Part shown: positions 10,101-23,306 of the stretch, piece after piece
Layout of the letters: each line of letters begins with the position of its first letter
Position numbering within the stretch: position 1 is the first letter of the stretch
Program-made: the position numbers and the translations under genes
NCBI GenBank assembly: GCA_021788795.1
Contig: JAJYKG010000001.1
Location: 1 to 30,466, forward strand
DNA: 30,466 bases
Direction of reading: 5' to 3'
Source of the DNA: Thermoplasmata archaeon
GTDB lineage: Archaea; Thermoplasmatota; Thermoplasmata; RBG-16-68-12
Notes under the pieces: generated by a model
What the model saw: the letters and a program-made list of their open reading frames with translations, nothing else
Databases searched by the model: none
Told to the model about the DNA's origin: nothing

Positions 10101-10736
10101 CTACGGCGGGGCGTCGAAGCCCCGCCATATTCCAACGGCCCGCTGGACCGCGGTCGCGTTCGCGAGGATCGCGAAGAGGACCAGGATCCACCCGAGCGGG
10201 CCGAAGGCCGCCGCGCCGATTCCCCAGGCCGCATTGCCGTTCGGCGCGAGGAGGAGCTGCACGAGGCCGCCGAGGCCCAGCAGGACCAGGCGGTCCGCGC
10301 GCCCCAGGAGGCCCGCGTACCGGCGGCCCTGACCGACCGCCTGGGCTTGGGTCCCCATGTAGGACGTCAGGAGCACGCCGATGATCGCGAGCGTGCCGAC
10401 CCAGAGCGGGCAGTACGCCGCGTTGAACGCGATGCCGGCCAGGAGGAACACGTCCGCGTAGCGGTCGAACACGTGGTCGATGAAGTCGCCCCGCGCGGAG
10501 GCCTTGCCGAACATCTTCGCGACCTTGCCGTCGAGGGCGTCCAGGTACGAGCTCAGGAGGAGGAGCACGAGGGCGGCGAGGAGGAGCCAGGCTCCCCCCA
10601 GGTAGAAGGACGCCCCCGCGACGGCGGCGACCAGGAGGGCCATCCACGAGATCGCGTTCGGGTTGACGCGGCCCAGGCGGGAGGCGACGGGCACGAGAAG
10701 GCCGTCCGCGGCGGGCCGGAGGCGGTCTAGTACCAC
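10101..10736 (-). CDS. CDP-alcohol phosphatidyltransferase (archaetidylinositol-phosphate synthase-like)
   Basis: Motif DALDGKVAK...GDFIDHVFDRYAD, plus NPNAISW and GLLGRADR. The GTG start at 10736 overlaps the adenylate kinase stop. Confidence 0.88.
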   Translation of the reverse strand: MVLDRLRPAADGLLVPVASRLGRVNPNAISWMALLVAAVAGASFYLGGAWLLLAALVLLLLSSYLDALDGKVAKMFGKASARGDFIDHVFDRYADVFLLAGIAFNAAYCPLWVGTLAIIGVLLTSYMGTQAQAVGQGRRYAGLLGRADRLVLLGLGGLVQLLLAPNGNAAWGIGAAAFGPLGWILVLFAILANATAVQRAVGIWRGFDAPP

Positions 10737-11248
10737 GAGAGCACCTCGTCGCTCCAGTCCACGGAGCCGGGCTCGTGCCCCTGGGTCTTCCCGCGGAGGA
10801 TCCCGAGGATCGCGTCCGCGGTCTCCTCGGGCGTCCCCCGCGTCGTGTCCACCTCGTACACGAGGGGGAGGCGCTCCACCGCCTGCTGGGTGATCACGTC
10901 GATCGCCTCGGCCTCCACGTTCTCCCGCACCTTCTCCGGCGGCCACCCGCGCGCCTCGAGCCTCGCCCGGAGGACCGCGGGAGAGCAGCGCAGCACCACG
11001 GCCATGTCGACGCCCATCTCATGGGCGTAGTGCGATCGGAGGAAGGCGATCTTCGCGGGCACGCGCAGGCTCTCCCGCAAGGCGTCCACGTCGACCTCGT
11101 CGCTCCCGCGCGCTTCGTCCCGGCCCACGACGAAGCCCCCCTGGCGGGCGACCTCATCCAGGTCGAGGACGACGTAGCCACGGCGGGACAGGACGTCGCA
11201 GGCGGTCGTCTTCCCCGTCCCCGGGGTCCCCGTGACCGCGACGAGCAT
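10727..11248 (-). CDS. Adenylate kinase, AK6/Fap7 family
   Basis: Walker A GTPGTGKTT, SHYAH, VVLRCSP and KVRENVEAE. A TTTAA box at 11273-11277 (minus) lies about 25 nt before the ATG. Confidence 0.88.
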   Translation of the reverse strand: MLVAVTGTPGTGKTTACDVLSRRGYVVLDLDEVARQGGFVVGRDEARGSDEVDVDALRESLRVPAKIAFLRSHYAHEMGVDMAVVLRCSPAVLRARLEARGWPPEKVRENVEAEAIDVITQQAVERLPLVYEVDTTRGTPEETADAILGILRGKTQGHEPGSVDWSDEVLSWY

Positions 11249-12424: not shown

Positions 12425-13545
12425 AGGTCAGTCGAGGGGAGCTCCGGGGTCGGCGGCGCGACAGGCTCCGGCGCCATCGGAGGTGCCTCCAATCGTCCCT
12501 CGAAGATGTCCTCCGCGAAGTGGCACTCCACCGAGTGTCCGGGCACCACCTCGACCACCGGCGGCCGGACGAGCTTGCAGATCTCCTGGGCGTAGACGCA
12601 GCGCGTCCGGAAGCGGCAGCCGCTCGGCAGGTCAATGGGGCTCGGCAGCTCCCCCTGGATCGGGACGGCGGTGTACACGTGCTCCGGGTCCGGGATGGGC
12701 ACCGCGGTCAGGAGCGCCCGCGTGTACGGGTGCGTGGGATGCGCGATCACCTCCTCGGTGGGCGCGCTCTCGACGATCCGCCCGAGGTACATCACGTTGA
12801 TCCGGTCAGACATGTACCGCGCCACGGCGATGTCGTGGGTGATGAACACGTAGGGCATCCGGTGCCGCGCGCGGAGATCGAGCATGAGGTTCATCACGCC
12901 CGCGCGGATCGAGACGTCGAGCATGGAGACGGGTTCGTCCGCGATGATGACCTTGGGGTTGAGGACGATGGCGCGGGCGATCGCCACGCGCTGCCGCTGC
13001 CCACCGGACATCTCGTGGGGGAACCGGTCGAGGAAGTCCTGCCCGGGCCGGAGCCCCGCCTCCTCGAGGGCACGGATGACGAGCTCCTCGCGCTCCTCCC
13101 GCGACTCGCCGATGCCGTGGATGAGGAGCGGCTCGGAGATCGCGCGCAGGACGCTGTAGCGTGGGTTGAGGGACTCGTACGGGTCCTGGAAGATCATCTG
13201 GAGGTCGCGGCGGAAGCGGAAGAGATCCCGCGGATCCAGGACGGCGATGTCGACGCCCTGGAAGAGGATCCGCCCCTCCGTGGGAGTCTCGAGCCGCGCG
13301 ATCAGCCGCCCCGTGGTGGTCTTCCCGCACCCCGACTCCCCGACGAGCCCGAGGATCTCGCCCTGCCGGAGGTCGAAGCCGATCCCGTCGACCGCGCGGA
13401 CGGAGACGGGCTCTCCGCGGAGGGACTTCAGGAAGCCCTGCTTGAGCTGGTAGTACTTCTTGAGGTGCTGGACGCTGACGACGACCCCGTCCTCCGCGAC
13501 GGGAGGGGCCTCGACGACCTCCGGGACCGCGGAACCGGCGCTCAT
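12421..13545 (-). CDS. oppF: Oligopeptide/dipeptide ABC transporter ATPase (OppF/DppF)
   Basis: GESGCGKTT, QMIFQDP, MSGGQRQR, IIADEP and a C-terminal CRFRTRC...C...CH cluster. The ATG at 13545 overlaps the oppD stop. Confidence 0.93.
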   Translation of the reverse strand: MSAGSAVPEVVEAPPVAEDGVVVSVQHLKKYYQLKQGFLKSLRGEPVSVRAVDGIGFDLRQGEILGLVGESGCGKTTTGRLIARLETPTEGRILFQGVDIAVLDPRDLFRFRRDLQMIFQDPYESLNPRYSVLRAISEPLLIHGIGESREEREELVIRALEEAGLRPGQDFLDRFPHEMSGGQRQRVAIARAIVLNPKVIIADEPVSMLDVSIRAGVMNLMLDLRARHRMPYVFITHDIAVARYMSDRINVMYLGRIVESAPTEEVIAHPTHPYTRALLTAVPIPDPEHVYTAVPIQGELPSPIDLPSGCRFRTRCVYAQEICKLVRPPVVEVVPGHSVECHFAEDIFEGRLEAPPMAPEPVAPPTPELPSTDL

Positions 13546-14882
13546 GTGTGGCCCAGCCCCCCCTGCTCGTAGAAGTCCTTCGAGAAGTGGCACAGGGCGC
13601 GGTGGCCTCCCTCCGGGGTGTAGAAGTAAGCGGGCTCCTGCACGAGGCAGACGTCCTGCACGTACTTGCAGCGCGGGTTGAAGCGGCAGCCCTTGGGCGG
13701 GGTCACGAGGCTCGGCGGGCTCCCGGGGATGGCTTCCAGGCGGCGCTTCTCGCCCTTGACGCTCGGGAAGGCGCCCAGGAGGCCCTGGGTGTAGGGATGG
13801 AGCGTCCGGCTGAAGATGTTCTTCGAGGCGCTCTCCTCGACCAGCTGGCCGGCATACATGACGCAGATGCGGTCCGCGACCTTCGCCACCGTGGACACGT
13901 CATGGGAGATGATCAGGAGGGTCATCTTCAGCTGCTTCTGGATGCGGAGGACCTCGTCCATGATCCGGGAGGCGGTGATGACGTCCAGGGCCGTGGTGGG
14001 CTCGTCCATGATCACGAGCTTCGGGTTCAGGGCCAGCGCCATGGCGATCATCGCACGCTGCTTCATGCCCCCGCTGTACTCGTGCGGGTAGTTGTCGATC
14101 CGGTCCGGCGGGATGCCCACGAGCCGGTACAGCTCCTCGACGCGGGTCCGCGCCTGCCCGTCGTCCACGTCCTCGTGGGTCTGGATGGCCTCGATGATCT
14201 GGTCGCCGACGGTGTAGACCGGGTTGAGGGCGTTCATCGCGCCTTGGAAGACCATGGCGATCTGCTTCCAACGGATCGCGTTGAGCTTCGGGTGGTATTC
14301 CCGCAGCCGGCCGTCGGGCAGGCGGGTGATGTCGACGAGGTCGCCCTCCTGGGTGGCCGCGGAGAGACGGCGCCGCGCTTCGATCAGGGGCCGGCGGACG
14401 CTCGGGTCGTTCGCCTGCCAACGCTCCGTGAGGGTGTCCACCTGCTTCTGGAGCGTCTTGATCTCCGCGTCCAGATGCGTCCGGTACGTCTCCGAGAGCG
14501 GGTTCTCCAGGCGCCCGATCTCCTCCTCGAGCTCCTGGCGGTCCTGGGAGGAGCCGTCCTCCTTCGGCGTCTGCGCCAGCTTCGCCCTCAGGTCCTCCAG
14601 ATCCCGCTGGAAGCGGGACTCCGCGAGACCCCAGTACTCCGGACGATAGGGGTTCGAGCCCCCCTCGCCGTGGAACAGGACTTGGCCCCCGAGGACGTAC
14701 GCGTTGGACGGGAGGAGCTGCGTGATCGCGTAGGCCAGGGTCGTCTTGCCGCATCCGGACTCCCCGACGAGCCCGACCGTCTCCCCCTCGTCGATGTCCA
14801 GGTCGACGCCGTCCACGGCCTTGACCCACCCGGCCTGGACCTTGAAGTAGACCCGGAGCTTGCGCACGGAGACGAGCGACAT
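13542..14882 (-). CDS. oppD: Oligopeptide/dipeptide ABC transporter ATPase (OppD/DppD) with a ~110-aa helical insertion
   Basis: GESGCGKTT, IAMVFQGAMNALNP, YSGGMKQR, VIMDEPTTALD and a C-terminal CRFNPRC...C...CH cluster. Confidence 0.93.
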   Translation of the reverse strand: MSLVSVRKLRVYFKVQAGWVKAVDGVDLDIDEGETVGLVGESGCGKTTLAYAITQLLPSNAYVLGGQVLFHGEGGSNPYRPEYWGLAESRFQRDLEDLRAKLAQTPKEDGSSQDRQELEEEIGRLENPLSETYRTHLDAEIKTLQKQVDTLTERWQANDPSVRRPLIEARRRLSAATQEGDLVDITRLPDGRLREYHPKLNAIRWKQIAMVFQGAMNALNPVYTVGDQIIEAIQTHEDVDDGQARTRVEELYRLVGIPPDRIDNYPHEYSGGMKQRAMIAMALALNPKLVIMDEPTTALDVITASRIMDEVLRIQKQLKMTLLIISHDVSTVAKVADRICVMYAGQLVEESASKNIFSRTLHPYTQGLLGAFPSVKGEKRRLEAIPGSPPSLVTPPKGCRFNPRCKYVQDVCLVQEPAYFYTPEGGHRALCHFSKDFYEQGGLGHT

Positions 14883-14884
14883 GG

Positions 14885-17227
14885 TCAGCGCCTCCGCAGG
14901 CGGGGGTTGATGATCTCATCGAAGCCGCGGCCGATGAGGTAGAAGCCCAGGGAGAGGAACGTGATCCCGAGCCCGGGCGGCAGCAGCCACCACCAGGCGT
15001 GCAGCGCGCCGCTGAACGTCAGCAGGTTGGAGAGCATCCCGCCCCACGAGGTGACGGTGGGGTCCCCGAACCCGAGGAAGCTCAGGGCCGCCTCCGTGAT
15101 GATCGCGCCGCCGACATTCAGGCTCATGTAGAGGAAGCTGAACGGGAGCACGTTGGGCGCGATGTGGAGGAACACGAGCCGCAGGTCCGAGGCGCCGGAG
15201 ACGCGCGCCGCGTCCACGAACGGGCGCTCCTTGAGGCTGAGTACTTGGGACCGGATGACCCGGGCGATCCCCGGCCACCCGAGGATCGCGATGACCAGGA
15301 TGATGATCCAGATGCTCGGGCTCACGATCGAGATGAGGACGAGCACGATGGGCAGGAACGGGAGGACGAGGAAGACGTCCGTCGTCCGCATGAGGAGGGT
15401 GTCCAGGGTCTTGCCGTAATACCCGGAGATCACGCCGACGAGCGTCCCGATCCCGACGCTGAAGAACGCCGCCAGCAGGCCGACGAGGAACGCGATCTGC
15501 GTGCCGTAGATCCACTCGGTCAGAATGTCGCCGCCGAAGAAGTCCGTGCCCCACAGGTACGTGTTCCCGGACGGGTAGGAGCCGGGCGGGAGCGGGGTGC
15601 GCACGGATCCTTGGAGCTGGAACGCGACCGTCTGCGCGGTCACGGGGTCCGTCCAGACGCCCCAGAGCTCCTGCGTCGAAAGGCTGCCGTAGAGCGTGCC
15701 GTGGAAGGAGCCGCCGTACTCAATGCTCTGCACGCCGGTCGGCGGGAAGACCGGGAACTCGTCGGGCGTCACCGCCGACGAACCGGAGTAGACCGTCATG
15801 AGGGAGAAGATCCTGTGGTCGCTTCCCAGGAAGAAGACCCGGTTCTGCTCGAAGGAGTAGAAGTAGCTCAGGACGCGGCCGGGGATGTGGACCTGGAACT
15901 GGGGGACGAGCTGGTAGCTGATCCCCGACGCGGTGGTCGCATTCACCTGGGTCGCGCCGACGAAGTACGTGTCGTTGGACGTGGCGTTGTACCAGGCGCT
16001 GAAGTAGTCGCTCCCGGTCCGGCTGAAGGTGTGGCCGAGGGGCTGCCATCCTGTCCCGGGGAGGGTGTACATCGTCCCCAGGGTCAGCGTGTTGAGGTCA
16101 AGGTAGGCCATCCCGCTGGCGGTGGCGGAGCGCAGGGGCAGGTACAGGCGCAGGGGGTACTGGGCCTGGGTGTACCCGATGTTCCCGACCACGGTCGCCG
16201 GAGCGCCGTCGAGGGTGAGCGGGACGAACGCCCGGACGGTCCCGGTGACGTCCGCGACCTCGAGCGTCCCGTTCGCCAGGGGCAGGAAGATGCCTTGGCC
16301 CGGGCCCGAGCGGTAGGCGTCCGCCGACGTGACGCCGGACGGGTTGTAGTAGACGAACGGAGGGGCGGAGAGCGTCACGTTAAGGGAGAACACCCGGGAC
16401 CCCGTGTCGATCGAGGAGGCCCACGCGTTGCCGTACTGGACCTCGTAGACGACGGTCTCGGTGCCGTTGGAGGCATAGAAGTACTGGTACGGGCCGACCG
16501 GCGTGCAGATGATGCCGAAGCACGAAGACCGCTGGGCGGGGGCGATGAGCAGGTCCCCGGCGGCCAGCGGATCCTCCCCGGTCCACGTCGGCGTGAAGTT
16601 CATCCGATCCCGGAAGAAGGCGTTCGCGCTGAACGGGTCCGCCGCGACGAAATCCTGCCCCGAGAAGAACGCGATGCCCCCGTTGAGCAGCGACGGCCCG
16701 AGGCTGCCGTTGAGGAGGGTCGAGGGGACGACATAGTAGAGGGACACCATGGGAAGGCCGGGGGGCGGGGCCAGTTTGAAATACTGGGTGATGTCGATCG
16801 TGCGGGTGTAGTTGGACGACAGGAACGGGCTCTCGTTGAACCCCACGGCGTACTCGAGCGGGTTCATGTAGATAATGCCGGCGGTGCGGTTGTAGTTCAG
16901 CTCCCACATCGCGCCCGCGGCGTTGCTGAGCGGCGTCGTGGGCCCGAGCACGGGCTCCGCGTAGGTGAGGTTCGCGGGCAGATCCAGCGTGTACGCCTTG
17001 TTCTGGAACCGGTCCACGTCCGGCGCGAGGTACAAGCGCGGATAGGGAGCAATGACCGGGGCCAGGATGGCGATGAGGGCGAACAAGACCACGATGACGA
17101 AGCCGATCATGCCGAGGCGGCTCTGCCGGAGCGTGGACCACGACTTCCTCGCGAGCTGCCCCACGCGCTGAAGCACGAGCTGGCCGGTGGAGGGCGCCGG
17201 GCGGCCCGCGGAATCAGATGCGGACAC
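14885..17227 (-). CDS. oppC: ABC permease OppC/DppC with a ~490-aa extracellular insertion
   Basis: N-terminal TM (LGMIGFVIVVLFALIAILAP), then after the insert WGTDFFGGDIL, GVISGYYG, the EAA loop (ERPFVDAARVSGAS) and EAALSFLGFG. A GTG start at 17227 overlapping the oppB end was chosen. Confidence 0.88.
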   Translation of the reverse strand: MSASDSAGRPAPSTGQLVLQRVGQLARKSWSTLRQSRLGMIGFVIVVLFALIAILAPVIAPYPRLYLAPDVDRFQNKAYTLDLPANLTYAEPVLGPTTPLSNAAGAMWELNYNRTAGIIYMNPLEYAVGFNESPFLSSNYTRTIDITQYFKLAPPPGLPMVSLYYVVPSTLLNGSLGPSLLNGGIAFFSGQDFVAADPFSANAFFRDRMNFTPTWTGEDPLAAGDLLIAPAQRSSCFGIICTPVGPYQYFYASNGTETVVYEVQYGNAWASSIDTGSRVFSLNVTLSAPPFVYYNPSGVTSADAYRSGPGQGIFLPLANGTLEVADVTGTVRAFVPLTLDGAPATVVGNIGYTQAQYPLRLYLPLRSATASGMAYLDLNTLTLGTMYTLPGTGWQPLGHTFSRTGSDYFSAWYNATSNDTYFVGATQVNATTASGISYQLVPQFQVHIPGRVLSYFYSFEQNRVFFLGSDHRIFSLMTVYSGSSAVTPDEFPVFPPTGVQSIEYGGSFHGTLYGSLSTQELWGVWTDPVTAQTVAFQLQGSVRTPLPPGSYPSGNTYLWGTDFFGGDILTEWIYGTQIAFLVGLLAAFFSVGIGTLVGVISGYYGKTLDTLLMRTTDVFLVLPFLPIVLVLISIVSPSIWIIILVIAILGWPGIARVIRSQVLSLKERPFVDAARVSGASDLRLVFLHIAPNVLPFSFLYMSLNVGGAIITEAALSFLGFGDPTVTSWGGMLSNLLTFSGALHAWWWLLPPGLGITFLSLGFYLIGRGFDEIINPRLRRR

Positions 17228-18215: not shown

Positions 18216-18254
18216 GGTTCACCCCCTCGGATTCGCTCCAGGAATCTCCGGAGC

Positions 18255-18263
18255 CTATAATAT
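18255..18263 (-). promoter_or_regulatory. TATA box of an internal promoter for oppBCDF
   Basis: The minus strand reads AGCAAAC-ATATTATAG, about 40 nt upstream of the oppB start. Confidence 0.55.
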
Positions 18264-18305
18264 GTTTGCTCAACCTCAAGCCCATTGGAACAAAAGTTGG
18301 AAAGT

Positions 18306-18330
18306 GGACCGGGGTTCTTCGCCCCGGTCC
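18306..18330 (-). terminator. Stem-loop with a downstream U-rich tract after oppA
   Basis: GGACCGGGG-N7-CCCCGGTCC is a perfect 9-bp stem 8 nt after the oppA stop. On the minus strand it is followed by ACTTTCCAACTTTTGTT. Confidence 0.7.
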
Positions 18331-18338
18331 GTTCGCTC

Positions 18339-21300
18339 CTAGAGCTTCTCGTCCGGCCCAAGTTCCTCCTCGGCGGGGGACTTGGTCTCCGCAGGCTGCT
18401 CCGTCTCCTCGGGCATCGCCATCGTCGGCTTCTTCCGCCGGCGCGACAGCATGAGCCCGACGAGCGCGCCCACGACCAGGCCCACGATCAGCAGTCCGCC
18501 GGCGAGGGCGTAGGCCACGAGAGAGCCGATCGTGCTCTCGGCGGAGCCCACCGTGACCGACGTCGACTGGCTCCCGATCGCCACGGTGTACGTGCCGGCC
18601 GACGCGAAGGCGTACGACAGGGTCACGTTCGCCGTCCCGAGGGAACCGACCGACACGGACTGCGCGGCGACGGGTTGGCCGTTCACCATGAGGACGACCG
18701 TGGAGGTGCCGGCGACAGGCAGAACGTTCGTCACCGTGAGTGCGAACGTCGAGACCTGCCCAGCCGCGGCCACGTTCGTCGCCATGCCGCCGTAGGTCAG
18801 CACGGGCGCCGCGGCCATCAGACCGAACCAGGCACGGAGCACCTGACCGTCCGCGGTGGTGACGACGACCATCTGCTCGACCGCACCGACCCCTGCGGTG
18901 TACGTGAACACCGCGTTGCCGTTGCTGTCGGTGACGGCCTGGACGGCTCCGCTCCAGACGGACGCCCCGTCGACGGCGGCGCTAGCGCCGTTCGCCACAT
19001 GCACCGTGACCGTGGTCGTCCCTCCGAGGGGAACGATCGTCGAGGACGGCGTGGCGGTCGCGAAGTCCGTCGCCGTCGGGATGGCGAGATACCCGACGTT
19101 GAAGTTGAACGGGAACTTCGCCAGCAGGACCTCGAAGGTCGGGCCGAACCAGAAGTCACCGTAGCCGTCGCCGAACAGCTGGTCGCGGGCTCCGAAGGCG
19201 AACGCCGGGTCCGCGGGCAGGAAGCCGAAGGACAGCGCCTGCGAGAGGCTGAACAGCGGGGCCTTGTAGGAGTCGGTCGCGACGCCGTTCGCGTCCGTGG
19301 TGATCGTCCCGCCGAACGCACCTAGCACGTTCGTGGGCGATCCGCCCTGGACCAGGAACACCTGGACGTTGGACGCGGGGACATCCGTGGATCCACTCAG
19401 CTTGTAGAACGTGCCCGTGATCGTCTGGGTCCGCCCGGTCGTCGAGTTGTAGACGGGGTTCGAGAGCGTCCACGAACCGAGGGCAAACACCGGCGCGCGC
19501 TGGGACACGACCCCTGAGTCGATCCGGAAGACCGAGTTGCCCACCGAGGCCACTGCCGCGCAGGCGTTCACGGTCACGTTCATGTCCGGCTGCCCGACGT
19601 ACAGCTGCACCTGGAACCGCTGGTCCGCAATCTCCGGGTTCGCCCAGAAGGTCGAGGTGTAGGTGCCCGCGGAGCTGGTCACGCTCGTCGCGTTGATGTA
19701 GTACAGCCCGTTGAAGTTGCGCGGCCACGCGACGGTCCCCGCGGTCTTGCTGCCGCCGGAGTTGCACGAGTCGATCGTTGCGTTGATCGCGTAGTTGTTG
19801 CCCATGTTGGCGAGCTCATAGTCGTTGACCATGTTCTCGACACCGTAGGCGGGCCCCTGCTTGATGTTCGGTCCCGGAACGGAGGGCCCGATCGGGCCCG
19901 TCGAGTTCTGGAAGGTGCCGCCCAGAGAGCCGAACCCGAAGAACGTGCTCAGCTCCAGGCCGGATCCCGCGTACTCGATGTTCTGGTAGCCGCCCTTCGT
20001 CCCCGACACGTTGACGAGCGTGTACACGAACGGGAACTGGGCCGCCAGCCCGTAGTCGCCGAGCGGGATGTTGAACATCACCGGGACGCCCGATGCGACA
20101 GCGCCCGTCTGATCCCACAGGTGCGCCGTCACGGTGTCCGTGGTCTTCGACGCCGAGAAGGCGAGCGCCCGCGAGCCGAAGGTGAGTTCCGCCGCGTAGC
20201 TAGCGTTCAGTACGTTGCTGCCCACGACAAACGCGAGCTCGTCCGAGGTCGCCGTGGCGTTGAACGGCGTGTCGAAGCGGACGAACACGTTCGTGTCGTT
20301 GGTCTTCACCGCGTTCACCTGGGGCGCGTTGCCCGTCATCGTGAACGTGGCCAGACCGCTGGCATCGGTCTTCGCGTATCCTGGCGCGATGGTCAGGTTC
20401 TTCGGGTCGGAGTTCTCGGCCGTGATGTTCACGCCGGGCACCCCCGCCCCGCTGAAGCCCGCCGCCTTGACGACAACCGTGGTCGAGGGGTGCGTGGTGT
20501 TCAGGACGAGGCCCGTCCCGATGCTCTGCACGGAGACGATGTCCACGTTCGGGGCGTTCGGGTTCTGCACCGCGATGGTCAGCGACGCGGACTGCGTCGT
20601 CCCGACGATCGTGTCCGGCACGCTCACGTTCGCGAGGATCGTGTCGAGCAGGTTCGCGTTCGGGAACAGCGCCGCGGTCGCTGGCGCGGTGTAGGTGAAG
20701 GTCGCGTGCCCGTTGGCGTCCGTGACGAAACTGGACCCGGAGGCGGTCCCAAGCATGAGGTGCGTGTCCAAGGTGACCGTCTGGCCGGCGATCGGGTTAC
20801 CTAGCCCGTCCACCAGCGAAGCCGTCACCGTGGCCGTGCCTCCCGGGAGGATGACCGGCGTCGGCGTCGAGAGCGACAACGTGGCCATCGGCGCCGGCGG
20901 CCCGACCGAGACCTCGAGCTCCTTCGTGACCGTGGAGGTCGCGCTGCCTTTGGCCGCCGTGACGGTCAGGTAGATGTTGCCCTGGATCACCGGGACCGTC
21001 CAGCTCACCTGCGCCCCGCCCGTGACGTCCGTCGTGCCGCTGGCACTGTTGAGCGCCGTGCCCGAGGGCAGGGACGCGTTGAGCCAGACCGTCGCGCCGT
21101 CCACCGGGACCCCGTTCTGGGAGACGTAGGCGGGAACCTGCATCACGTGATTCGCGAGCACCCGCTCCGGCACCGTGGTCGCCACGTTCAGCGTGCCCGA
21201 AGGCGGCGGCACGGCCGGGACTCCCGCGGGTCGCAGGCTGACGAGGGAGTAGAAGTTGAAGACTCCGCCGCCGCCCGAGAGCGCGTTCAGCACCGGGTTG

Positions 21301-23249
21301 TCGATGAAGCCCGACCACCGCGTGTTCAGGTAGGCGTTGATGTTCTTGCGGTAGTACAGGACGTTCCACGGAATCGCGTTCGTCACGATCCCTTCGACCT
21401 GCTGGATCTCCTGGATCCGCTTGGTCTGGTCGACCGTGTAGGGGATGACATCGTTCGCGAGGTAGTCCACCGTCGCGTTGCTGAATCCCGCGGAGTTCGA
21501 GCCCGCCGGGTTGATGTTCGGGTCCTGGTTCGTGCAGAAGAACGCGCACAGGTACGTCTCCGGGTAGGGGCCTAGGCTCCATCCGAGGATGTAGATGTCG
21601 AAGCTCACCGGGGGCGAGAACGCCTTGGCCACGATCGTGTCGAAGCTCGTGGGGGCGGAGTTGATGTCCAGGCCCGCCTGCTTCAGGTTGTTCGAGATCA
21701 TGATGCCCGCGTCGGCCCGCACCGGGTCGTAGTCCTTGGGCGGGGTCAGGATCGTCGCGGAGATCGGGGTCCCGTCCGGCGTGTCGTAGAACCCGGTGTT
21801 CGGGTCCTTGTGGAACCCGCAGCCGTTCAGCTTGGCATCGATGCCGGCCAGGTTGAACGACGGGGCGTTCGCCGAGAAGTTCACGTAGGCCGGGTTGATG
21901 ATGGAGATCGGCACCGAGCCAGGCACGCCGAAGCCGCCCAGCAAGGTGTTGACGATGTAGTTCTTGTCGATCGCCATCGAGATGGCCTGCCGCAGGCAGA
22001 GGCTGTACGGCTCCTGGCCCCAGGGCGCCTTCCGCATGTTGAAGGACAGGTAGAAGAACCCGCTGTCGGTGACCGTGTCGACGGAGATCGCCGGGTTCGA
22101 CTGGACCTGGGTGTAGAAGCCGGGCGTCAGGGACCAGATCAGGGTGTCAATCACGCCCTGTTGCAGGGCCAGGCTGACGACGTCCAGGCTGCTGTAGATC
22201 ACGAACTTGATCGACTGCAGGTAGGCGTCTCCCGTGATCGGGTTGATCTGGGGGTAGAACGGGTAGTTCACGCCCTGCCAGACATGGCCCAGGCCGATGC
22301 CCCAGTAGGTCGGGTCCAAGGAGACGAGGGAGCCCTGGTTGTGGACCCACGACGTCAGCTCGAACGGCCCCGTGCCGATGGTGGCGGCGAGCGTGCTGTA
22401 GCTGAAGTCGATCGACCGGTCCCACGTGTCGCTTACCGCCGCGGACGTCGAACTCGAGTAGTTCGCCTGGGCCGTGGGGTCGATGTGGCCGGCCCAGATG
22501 TGCTCAGGGATAATCGACGTGCTCAGCGTCGTGGTGAAGAACAGCGCATAGGCGCCCGGCGTCGCCTGGCCCGTGATGGGGACCGGCAAGAGCTGGAACC
22601 GCACCGCGTACTGGTTACCGGAGACTCCGAACACCGCGATGTGGGACATGCAGGCGTACTGCATCCCTGCGGGTGCCTTGCAGCTCCCACCGTAGGTGGT
22701 CGAGTTCCACAGGGGCGCGATGGGCTGCGGGAACCAGAGTGCCTGGTAGATGCTCGAGGCCAGGGTGGACCAGGCGAGGGTCTGGTACGAGAAGATCACG
22801 TCGGACGCGTTCATCGGCGTGCCGTCCGTGAAGTGCACGGCCGGATTGATGAACACCGTGAAGTTCAGTCCCGATCCCCCCGTGCCGCCGTCGTAGCACA
22901 TGCCGGGGTACGGCGCCTGAACGTACGTACTCCCCATGACGCTCTGACAGGTGGCCGTCGAGATCATTGACTGGTTGGCCAAGTCGGGATACACGCTGGA
23001 ACTTGGGTCAATCGTGTATAGCGCCTCGAAGTCGTACTCTAGCTGATATGCCTTCCAAACGGTATTCGTCGCCGGATCGAACAGGTTGAGGGTAGTCATG
23101 TCATTCTGAAGACCCACAACGAGCTGGTTCGGGCCGGCCTGGGCGGATACCGGGTTGGGCTGCACCATGAACACAAAGCCCGCGAGAATCATCACCCAAA
23201 CGAGGATGGTCACGCGCAGAGCGTTCGAGCCGAGCAATTTGCTTACCAT
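18339..23249 (-). CDS. oppA: Giant family-5 (OppA/DppA) substrate-binding protein fused to Ig-like repeats, with a C-terminal TM anchor
   Basis: Signal peptide ending VSA-Q. The SBP domain (about aa 39-670) has FEALY, VHFTDGTPMNASDVIFS, IGTGPFEL, YLSFNMRKAPW, LRQAISMAIDK and AIPWNVLYY. It is followed by repeated TD(A/S)xG-x-A-x-F beta motifs, a CARDB-like module, a TM helix and an acidic tail. Confidence 0.9.
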   Translation of the reverse strand: MVSKLLGSNALRVTILVWVMILAGFVFMVQPNPVSAQAGPNQLVVGLQNDMTTLNLFDPATNTVWKAYQLEYDFEALYTIDPSSSVYPDLANQSMISTATCQSVMGSTYVQAPYPGMCYDGGTGGSGLNFTVFINPAVHFTDGTPMNASDVIFSYQTLAWSTLASSIYQALWFPQPIAPLWNSTTYGGSCKAPAGMQYACMSHIAVFGVSGNQYAVRFQLLPVPITGQATPGAYALFFTTTLSTSIIPEHIWAGHIDPTAQANYSSSTSAAVSDTWDRSIDFSYSTLAATIGTGPFELTSWVHNQGSLVSLDPTYWGIGLGHVWQGVNYPFYPQINPITGDAYLQSIKFVIYSSLDVVSLALQQGVIDTLIWSLTPGFYTQVQSNPAISVDTVTDSGFFYLSFNMRKAPWGQEPYSLCLRQAISMAIDKNYIVNTLLGGFGVPGSVPISIINPAYVNFSANAPSFNLAGIDAKLNGCGFHKDPNTGFYDTPDGTPISATILTPPKDYDPVRADAGIMISNNLKQAGLDINSAPTSFDTIVAKAFSPPVSFDIYILGWSLGPYPETYLCAFFCTNQDPNINPAGSNSAGFSNATVDYLANDVIPYTVDQTKRIQEIQQVEGIVTNAIPWNVLYYRKNINAYLNTRWSGFIDNPVLNALSGGGGVFNFYSLVSLRPAGVPAVPPPSGTLNVATTVPERVLANHVMQVPAYVSQNGVPVDGATVWLNASLPSGTALNSASGTTDVTGGAQVSWTVPVIQGNIYLTVTAAKGSATSTVTKELEVSVGPPAPMATLSLSTPTPVILPGGTATVTASLVDGLGNPIAGQTVTLDTHLMLGTASGSSFVTDANGHATFTYTAPATAALFPNANLLDTILANVSVPDTIVGTTQSASLTIAVQNPNAPNVDIVSVQSIGTGLVLNTTHPSTTVVVKAAGFSGAGVPGVNITAENSDPKNLTIAPGYAKTDASGLATFTMTGNAPQVNAVKTNDTNVFVRFDTPFNATATSDELAFVVGSNVLNASYAAELTFGSRALAFSASKTTDTVTAHLWDQTGAVASGVPVMFNIPLGDYGLAAQFPFVYTLVNVSGTKGGYQNIEYAGSGLELSTFFGFGSLGGTFQNSTGPIGPSVPGPNIKQGPAYGVENMVNDYELANMGNNYAINATIDSCNSGGSKTAGTVAWPRNFNGLYYINATSVTSSAGTYTSTFWANPEIADQRFQVQLYVGQPDMNVTVNACAAVASVGNSVFRIDSGVVSQRAPVFALGSWTLSNPVYNSTTGRTQTITGTFYKLSGSTDVPASNVQVFLVQGGSPTNVLGAFGGTITTDANGVATDSYKAPLFSLSQALSFGFLPADPAFAFGARDQLFGDGYGDFWFGPTFEVLLAKFPFNFNVGYLAIPTATDFATATPSSTIVPLGGTTTVTVHVANGASAAVDGASVWSGAVQAVTDSNGNAVFTYTAGVGAVEQMVVVTTADGQVLRAWFGLMAAAPVLTYGGMATNVAAAGQVSTFALTVTNVLPVAGTSTVVLMVNGQPVAAQSVSVGSLGTANVTLSYAFASAGTYTVAIGSQSTSVTVGSAESTIGSLVAYALAGGLLIVGLVVGALVGLMLSRRRKKPTMAMPEETEQPAETKSPAEEELGPDEKL

Positions 23250-23297
23250 GGCCGTACTCCTCCGCTAAACCCTTAAGACGCCCCAAGCGTCGGGATG

Positions 23298-23306
23298 CTA
23301 TAAATA
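23298..23306 (-). promoter_or_regulatory. TATA box of the oppA promoter
   Basis: The minus strand reads CAAAATG-TATTTATAG. An SD GGAGGAG precedes the ATG at 23249. An inverted repeat GACGC-N5-GCGTC at 23277-23291 lies between the box and the expected start site. Confidence 0.65.

Follow-up and report, generated by a model that had tools for sequence, protein, structure and literature searches.

A conserved seven-domain stalk on a Thermoplasmata peptide-binding protein and its pairing with an enlarged OppC permease

The 30,466-nucleotide stretch analyzed here (the window: Thermoplasmata archaeon, GenBank assembly GCA_021788795.1, contig JAJYKG010000001.1, positions 1 to 30,466) encodes on its minus strand a 1636-residue substrate-binding protein (18339-23249), which heads a complete Opp operon. 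This stalked OppA is a form of the C-terminally anchored OppA of Archaea in which the linker between binding domain and membrane is replaced by a conserved body of seven domains. The stalk keeps its domain number and order among homologs, is about as conserved as the binding domain itself, and strictly co-occurs with an OppC permease enlarged by a large ectodomain. These three features speak for a stalk that serves the importer itself, and against a loose spacer or an adhesin with a role of its own. The reading that we favor, by a modest degree, is that the stalk, the transmembrane helix and the cytoplasmic tail together form a tether and partner module, that is, a dedicated subunit of an oversized Opp importer that works with the OppC ectodomain.

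A sequence-only reading of the same DNA had proposed that about 950 residues with recurring modules follow the binding domain and build six to seven stacked immunoglobulin (Ig)-like domains. The part concerned (window 18339-21215, residues ~679-1636) lies directly after the SBP_bac_5 domain. All five quoted module strings are present, as TDxxGxA modules at residues 739-750, 842-853, 960-971, 1317-1328 and 1439-1450. An AlphaFold2 model of residues 680-1636, built from a 36-sequence alignment, is confident (mean predicted local distance difference test score, pLDDT, 86; predicted template modeling score, pTM, 0.67) and all-beta until a long helix at the transmembrane segment, the last 35 residues being disordered. 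Parsing of the AlphaFold2 models gives seven beta-sandwich domains, here D1 to D7 from the binding domain to the membrane, of which six are predicted to be Big_1-like (two of them elaborated) and one CARDB-like; the proposal of a tandem Ig-type fold is thus borne out at its upper count. A pTM of 0.67 over a 957-residue chain of seven domains of roughly 100 amino acids each suggests rigid packing between domains. Moreover, profile-profile comparison relates four of the modules to one another at 80-98% probability, and both halves of an interrupted module match module 2 at 78-86%. Judged by these profiles, the repeats are truly homologous, beyond chance resemblance.

All seven domains, like the other features of the gene, are encoded on the minus strand. 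D1 (20904-21194, residues 686-782), Ig-like and preceded by a proline-rich linker, is modeled with a pLDDT of about 90 and is related by hhalign to D2 (92%) and D6 (91%). D2 (20559-20894, residues 786-897) is of the Big_1 or intimin/invasin type and holds the best Pfam Big_1 stretch (residues 805-855). Its best solved match by VIA-align is intimin D00-D0 (6tqd; Z 12.7, root-mean-square deviation (rmsd) 2.1 Å over 97 residues), with invasin and InvE also among its structural matches. D3 (20214-20558, residues 898-1012) and the Big_1-related D6 (18816-19079, residues 1391-1478) are Ig-like and modeled as beta strands, with hhalign probabilities of 96.6% between D2 and D3, 97.6% between D2 and D6 and 94% between D3 and D6. 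The assignment to invasin-type folds, already made from the motifs, holds: Pfam Big_1 (PF02369) scores 36.6 bits against a cut-off of 34.9 over three stretches, so that the sequence score is marginal and the fold match clear. A weak match to Pfam MG4 was also found.

The two elaborated domains lie side by side. D4 (19494-20204, residues 1016-1252) is an Ig core into which about 120 amino acids are inserted (residues 1067-1185, window 19695-20051). It has many invariant glycine, aspartate, tyrosine and cysteine columns and carries the only two cysteines of the stalk, C1162 and C1230, which are invariant in 36 of 36 homologs; both the insert and the nearby cysteine pair had been noticed from the sequence. 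Searches of the PDB, the AlphaFold DB clusters and Pfam with the insert returned no match to its fold, and only the Ig cores were matched. D5 (19080-19493, residues 1253-1390) is Big_1/MG4-like with a helix-containing insert of about 50 amino acids, and begins at an R-A-P motif (R1251, A1252 and P1253) that is invariant at the D4/D5 border in the 36-homolog alignment. In a second model, restricted to residues 1004-1390 (pLDDT 89.5, pTM 0.86), D4 and D5 are predicted to form a rigid pair, and D5 (residues 250-387 of that model) matches intimin (1f02, Z 9.0) and the MG4 domain of complement C5 (6rpt, Z 9.0). Finally, the membrane-proximal D7 (18543-18809, residues 1481-1569) is CARDB/FN3-like by VIA-align, as had been suspected; it matches a Pyrococcus CARDB domain (3idu, Z 10.1) and a surface protein of M. 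acetivorans (2l0d, Z 9.9). Pfam CARDB (PF07705) remains below its cut-off in this protein (E 0.85, 10.3 bits against 22.7), and several homologs have a recorded match. In all, about 890 residues of folded domains separate the binding domain from the transmembrane helix, with a gap of about 8 residues between D7 and the helix.

About 42 clusters share the full architecture (1490-1670 amino acids). Among 36 homologs, down to ~40% identity, all seven domains are present in the same order with a stalk length of 869-1007 amino acids, and conservation scores are 0.52-0.66 for the stalk domains against 0.64 for the binding domain. These figures bear on the simplest alternative, in which the stalk would be a passive spacer lifting the binding domain through a glycocalyx or S-layer, with no specific contact to OppC, whose enlargement would serve some other purpose. 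Rod-like Ig stalks are classic spacers in invasin and intimin, the pTM of the stalk model suggests rigid packing between its domains, many other surface proteins of the same genome share the anchor, and the composition and length of the distal stalk differ widely across the class. However, a spacer would allow gain and loss of domains and faster divergence, whereas the stalk has the same domains in the same order throughout and is as conserved as the binding domain. A spacer would also leave unexplained why stalk and OppC ectodomain are so strictly paired, and a rigid rod would keep its binding domain too far out to reach the permease for docking. We therefore consider the spacer account unlikely.

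A match to the stalk profile was found in 77 of 401 sampled Thermoplasmata genomes. Only within the genus of the source organism, in 10 of 28 other genomes, and in parts of its order does the match cover the full length. Many families match over positions 2-390 of the stalk, from D1 through D3 into the beginning of D4, in open reading frames of 1400-2990 amino acids, and the R-A-P motif between D4 and D5 can be recognized in the distant stalked proteins as well. Some of the latter are 1986-2940 amino acids long and carry NosD/right-handed beta-helix and other modules after D1 to D5, the long examples including L054:588-9410 (+), P0064 and P0065, and some have no C-terminal anchor. Database entries with this architecture are common and bear just the name "ABC transporter substrate-binding protein"; a stalked protein of the cultivated Aciduliprofundum boonei T469 (ADD08603.1) is named "extracellular solute-binding protein family 5". 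We found no study of it, hence no sign of an identical architecture already characterized, and a literature search for which most subscription journals were outside reach returned no description of a stalked OppA or of its pairing with a propeller-bearing OppC. For the soil lineage, the published account remarks only on the many peptide transporters encoded (PMC9038741).

The partner permease is itself unusual. The oppC open reading frame of the window is listed at 791 amino acids (the ESM Atlas gene call begins at its residue 51), with Pfam OppC_N at residues 38-75 and BPD_transp_1 at 605-790. Between the first transmembrane segment and the permease core lies an ectodomain of about 480-490 amino acids (15566-17035, minus strand), in which the Pfam search found no domain. 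Over this ectodomain the ESM Atlas model of OppC, of low confidence (pLDDT 0.60), resembles seven-bladed propellers, with template modeling (TM) scores of 0.5-0.57 by query and 0.6-0.7 by hit; the ectodomain is probably a beta-propeller.

The ectodomain is kept in 13 of 13 related loci from soil metagenome-assembled genomes (MAGs). Across the class, 20 loci that encode a stalked binding protein were compared; permease genes adjoin it in 11, and in every one of these OppC is 749-779 amino acids long. With the operon of the window, OppC is thus enlarged in 12 of 12 stalked operons (749-791 amino acids as listed), which fall in at least 8 family codes; taken over all the evidence, the pattern recurs in at least nine family codes. 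Within the source genome, OppC is of normal size in those Opp operons in which the binding protein is unextended or extended in another way; next to the one paralog with a Big_1-like extension (contig C251) OppC is again enlarged. Conversely, a profile of the OppC ectodomain matches 33 genomes of the class, of which 31 have a stalk match too; in the whole sample 77 of 401 genomes have one. One of the two exceptions has only a free-standing 547-amino-acid homolog of the ectodomain; in the other, whose genome is 68% complete, fragments are present. The association holds where the genes are apart: in G114, G081 and A. boonei a propeller-bearing oppBCDF cluster has no binding-protein gene nearby and a stalked "orphan" gene lies elsewhere in the genome. 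G184 and G043 likewise have an orphan stalked gene; there the permease contig ends just upstream of oppB, so that adjacency cannot be read. Stalk and enlarged OppC thus strictly co-occur; related genomes are not independent, so that these counts are descriptive and overstate the support.

Two further observations were made on the ectodomain. Free-standing homologs of 508-547 amino acids, outside permeases, occur in the same genus (L072:4785-6428 (+) and L073:5387-6913 (+)). In Aciduliprofundum (G013, L074:7953-11900 (+)) the opp operon without a binding-protein gene has both permeases enlarged, OppB to 491 amino acids with an N-terminal extension of about 195 amino acids and OppC to 818 amino acids, the gene of the stalked binding protein being about 45 kb distant.

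In the favored reading of a dedicated importer subunit, the seven-domain stalk would take the place of the short glycosylated Ser/Thr linker and tether the peptide-binding domain to the membrane. Stalk and OppC ectodomain would contact or position one another and so present the binding domain for hand-over to the permease, and the transmembrane helix, which bears a glycine zipper, may pack against another helix, of the permease or of a second copy of the protein, and may keep the protein at its own transporter. Several points weigh against this. To our knowledge, in every solved type I ABC importer the binding protein delivers the substrate by docking straight onto the permease, at its membrane face; if the stalk were an extended rigid rod of about 25 nm, the binding domain would stand far from that face. 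Fold searches with the whole stalk cannot tell an extended rod from a folded-back body. The propeller assignment for OppC rests on the low-confidence ESM Atlas model, and a complex prediction of the OppC ectodomain with D1 to D3 scored 0.02, which speaks neither for nor against binding. In addition, several orphan relatives have very different distal parts, up to 2940 amino acids with NosD/beta-helix modules, indicating that the membrane-proximal part is under no single geometric constraint across the class. A more elaborate version, in which the stalked OppA would be a permanent stoichiometric subunit with its zipper helix lodged in OppBC, the Ig domains nearest the binding domain latching the OppC propeller when loaded, the C-terminal motif touching the ATPases and peptide capture being passed on mechanically, is in our estimation a long shot; if true, it would be a docking and signaling mode of the binding protein that is not known from any ABC importer.

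The sequence-only reading had also suggested that the stalk doubles as an adhesin or S-layer-like protein. Stated as a full alternative, the Ig array would build the cell surface, as a coat or S-layer substitute, or bind particles or cells, and peptide binding would be secondary. Big_1 arrays do typify adhesins, S-layer proteins are among the multi-Ig Foldseek matches, and the stalk has 15 N-X-S/T sequons. Furthermore, the surface of an Asgard archaeon that lacks an S-layer is dominated by a family-5 binding protein with a C-terminal anchor, which ranks first there both in abundance and among the glycosylated surface proteins (PMC11284389); this serves as context only. The sequon number is close to a composition-based estimate (~12), hence not enriched. 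The binding protein is presumably surface-exposed and glycosylated. We found nothing that points to adhesion or to a lattice: the protein lacks an outer-membrane barrel as well as any end domain of the lectin-like or receptor-binding kind, and the tip of the stalk is the binding domain itself. Moreover, the gene opens a complete Opp operon, occurs as a single copy and is phyletically tied to a feature of the permease. The stalk always travels with the enlarged OppC, which ties it to the transporter rather than to adhesion, and we regard the adhesin or coat alternative as very unlikely.

Comparison with characterized adhesins agrees with a shared domain type only. Like invasin and intimin (1cwv, 1f02, 6tqd), the stalk has tandem Big_1-type domains (Z 9-12.7) and the TDxNGxA-type strand motif. 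Unlike them, it shows in Pfam neither an outer-membrane beta-barrel nor a C-terminal lectin-like domain, and its polarity is opposite, with a C-terminal anchor and an N-terminal functional head. Two-domain superpositions on intimin/invasin-type structures fail (rmsd 11-17 Å), hence the geometry between domains differs. Foldseek with the whole stalk retrieved complement C5, alpha-2-macroglobulins and an S-layer protein (TM-score ~0.13, best E 1e-17), and a search of PDB sequences with the stalk profile gave no match. As far as the models show, these Foldseek matches reflect a shared run of beta-sandwiches, that is, domain type alone. Kinship with alpha-2-macroglobulin, which like complement has many consecutive MG/Ig-like beta-sandwiches, was considered and rejected: the stalk has no CUB/TED domain, no bait region and no thioester CxEQ, neither of its only two cysteines lies in a CxEQ context, and the TM-score is very low.

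The C-terminal end contains, as predicted from the sequence, a transmembrane helix (18444-18518, residues 1578-1602), an RRRKK stop-transfer cluster (18429-18443, residues 1603-1607) and an acidic tail. Apart from the N-terminal signal, the stretch ~1578-1602 is the sole strong hydrophobic segment, and both hydropathy and the model support a helix. It bears a glycine zipper (G1590-x3-G1594-x3-G1598), whose glycines are invariant together with L1582, L1586 and L1587. The cytoplasmic tail (18342-18428, residues 1608-1636, 29 amino acids; quoted acidic string at 1614-1636) is disordered in the model and ends in AEEELGPxExL in most of the 36 aligned C-termini, with E1628 and E1629 invariant. The transmembrane helix and the last 12 residues have a conservation score of 0.76, the highest of the whole protein, and the C-terminal motif is found nowhere else in the genome.

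The type of anchor itself is not specific to this protein. A transmembrane helix followed by an RRRKK-type cluster and a charged, Pro- or Glu-rich tail ends at least 20 other long open reading frames in this genome, among which five encode further family-5 binding proteins (examples lie on contigs C200, C114, C144, C218, C45, C106 and C251), and several of its binding proteins terminate in a similar E-G-x-[LI]-x-LPP motif. Helix and basic cluster look like the standard stop-transfer anchor for surface proteins in this lineage, and this general anchor perhaps carries short cytoplasmic recognition motifs; what is distinctive here is the conserved helix face and the tail motif. A PGF-CTERM/archaeosortase signal was examined and rejected: AYALAGG precedes the helix without PGF, and a conserved 29-amino-acid tail follows the basic cluster.

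The conserved tail had been proposed to couple to the cytoplasm, and in the alternative that builds on this it would be a signaling or regulatory link to the ATPases, for example to an insertion in OppD, or to another cytoplasmic factor. The distal motif and the helix are the most conserved parts of the protein, with two invariant glutamates; the motif lies at the exact C-terminus and is unique in the genome, and acidic Glu/Pro-rich tails recur in distant stalked relatives. A cytoplasmic contact is accordingly conceivable. A contact with the OppD insertion in particular is not supported. The OppD of the window (446 amino acids, 13542-14882, minus strand) has a charged insertion of about 110 amino acids in its ATPase domain, and across stalked systems OppD is 397-447 amino acids long with the insertion and 335-349 without it (overall range 335-491), with no co-variation with the tail: relatives with strongly acidic tails have an ordinary OppD of 335-349 amino acids, whereas a paralogous system of the same genome that has the OppD insertion has a merely short basic tail. 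Docking of the tail on this insertion was therefore rejected as a general rule, the insertion varying freely whatever the acidity of the tail. Outside the genus and order, moreover, the tails are of low complexity without a conserved motif, and the tail is predicted to be disordered. We give the regulatory link little credence as the main explanation of the architecture.

Among characterized proteins, the closest in layout are the OppA proteins of Saccharolobus solfataricus and Aeropyrum pernix, in which the C-terminal helix follows a short glycosylated Ser/Thr linker (PMC3387779). The sequence-only reading had drawn the same contrast, and it holds. The stalked protein shares with them a family-5 domain, a Sec signal with a signal peptidase I (SPase I)-type site, a single C-terminal transmembrane helix and an Opp/Dpp-type importer. 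It differs by seven folded domains (~890 residues) in place of the linker, an invariant glycine zipper, a conserved cytoplasmic motif and a partner OppC with an ectodomain of ~480 amino acids.

Other ABC importers offer conceptual parallels. In the maltose importer of E. coli, the P2 loop of MalF is an extracytoplasmic elaboration of the permease that engages the binding protein; that loop is Ig-like and much smaller than the OppC ectodomain, which is probably a propeller. In GlnPQ and OpuA the binding domains are fused to the permease and so permanently attached, whereas the stalked binding protein is made as a polypeptide of its own and carries an anchor.

The signal peptide (23142-23249, residues 1-36) is hydrophobic at residues 9-31 and ends in a conserved ASA/AQA motif (consensus ASAQ, with A36 invariant in the 36-homolog alignment), after which a putative SPase I cleavage site is probable. 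The substrate-binding domain follows (21213-23141, residues 37-679); it matches SBP_bac_5 (PF00496) at residues 126-574 (E 2.2e-41, 142.7 bits against a cut-off of 32.4), and its closest solved sequence is AppA of B. subtilis (1xoc, E 1e-17). From these matches it is a family-5 (Opp/Dpp-type, cluster C) substrate-binding protein and a predicted peptide binder. Four genes lie directly downstream on the same strand, oppB, oppC, oppD and oppF, with the Pfam domains BPD_transp_1, OppC_N, and ABC_tran plus oligo_HPY twice. The window has a G + C content of ~65-72%, the host assembly is 2.2 Mb and 78% complete, and the close relatives of the gene are found in Thermoplasmata MAGs from soil and sediment. 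Downstream of oppF, a 173-amino-acid AAA_18 (nucleotide-kinase-like) gene (10727-11248, minus strand) keeps a fixed spacing from oppF in all related loci at 70-81% identity; the gap of ~1.2 kb between the two contains a 227-amino-acid open reading frame without a family match.

Candidate expression signals flank the binding-protein gene. A TATA-like box, TATTTATA, at 23299-23306 and a GGAGG lie upstream of its start codon. Between its stop codon and oppB, a terminator-like element (18292-18329, minus strand) consists of an 8-bp G + C-rich hairpin followed by T runs, and a second TATA-like box with a Shine-Dalgarno-like GAGGGGGTGA lies ahead of oppB (the signals span 18230-18329 and 23259-23306, minus strand). 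This arrangement suggests two transcription units, with the binding protein transcribed apart from the permease and probably at a higher level, which agrees with the unlinked binding-protein genes of other genomes.

The stalked design spans a whole archaeal class, including abundant peptide consumers of soil and one cultivated species. If its parts cooperate, it would be a new solution for keeping and presenting a binding protein in cells without a periplasm, and cooperation between stalk and OppC would bear on peptide scavenging by Thermoplasmata. Since Aciduliprofundum boonei has distant versions of both parts (ADD08603.1 and the 818-amino-acid OppC), the question may be approached in culture.

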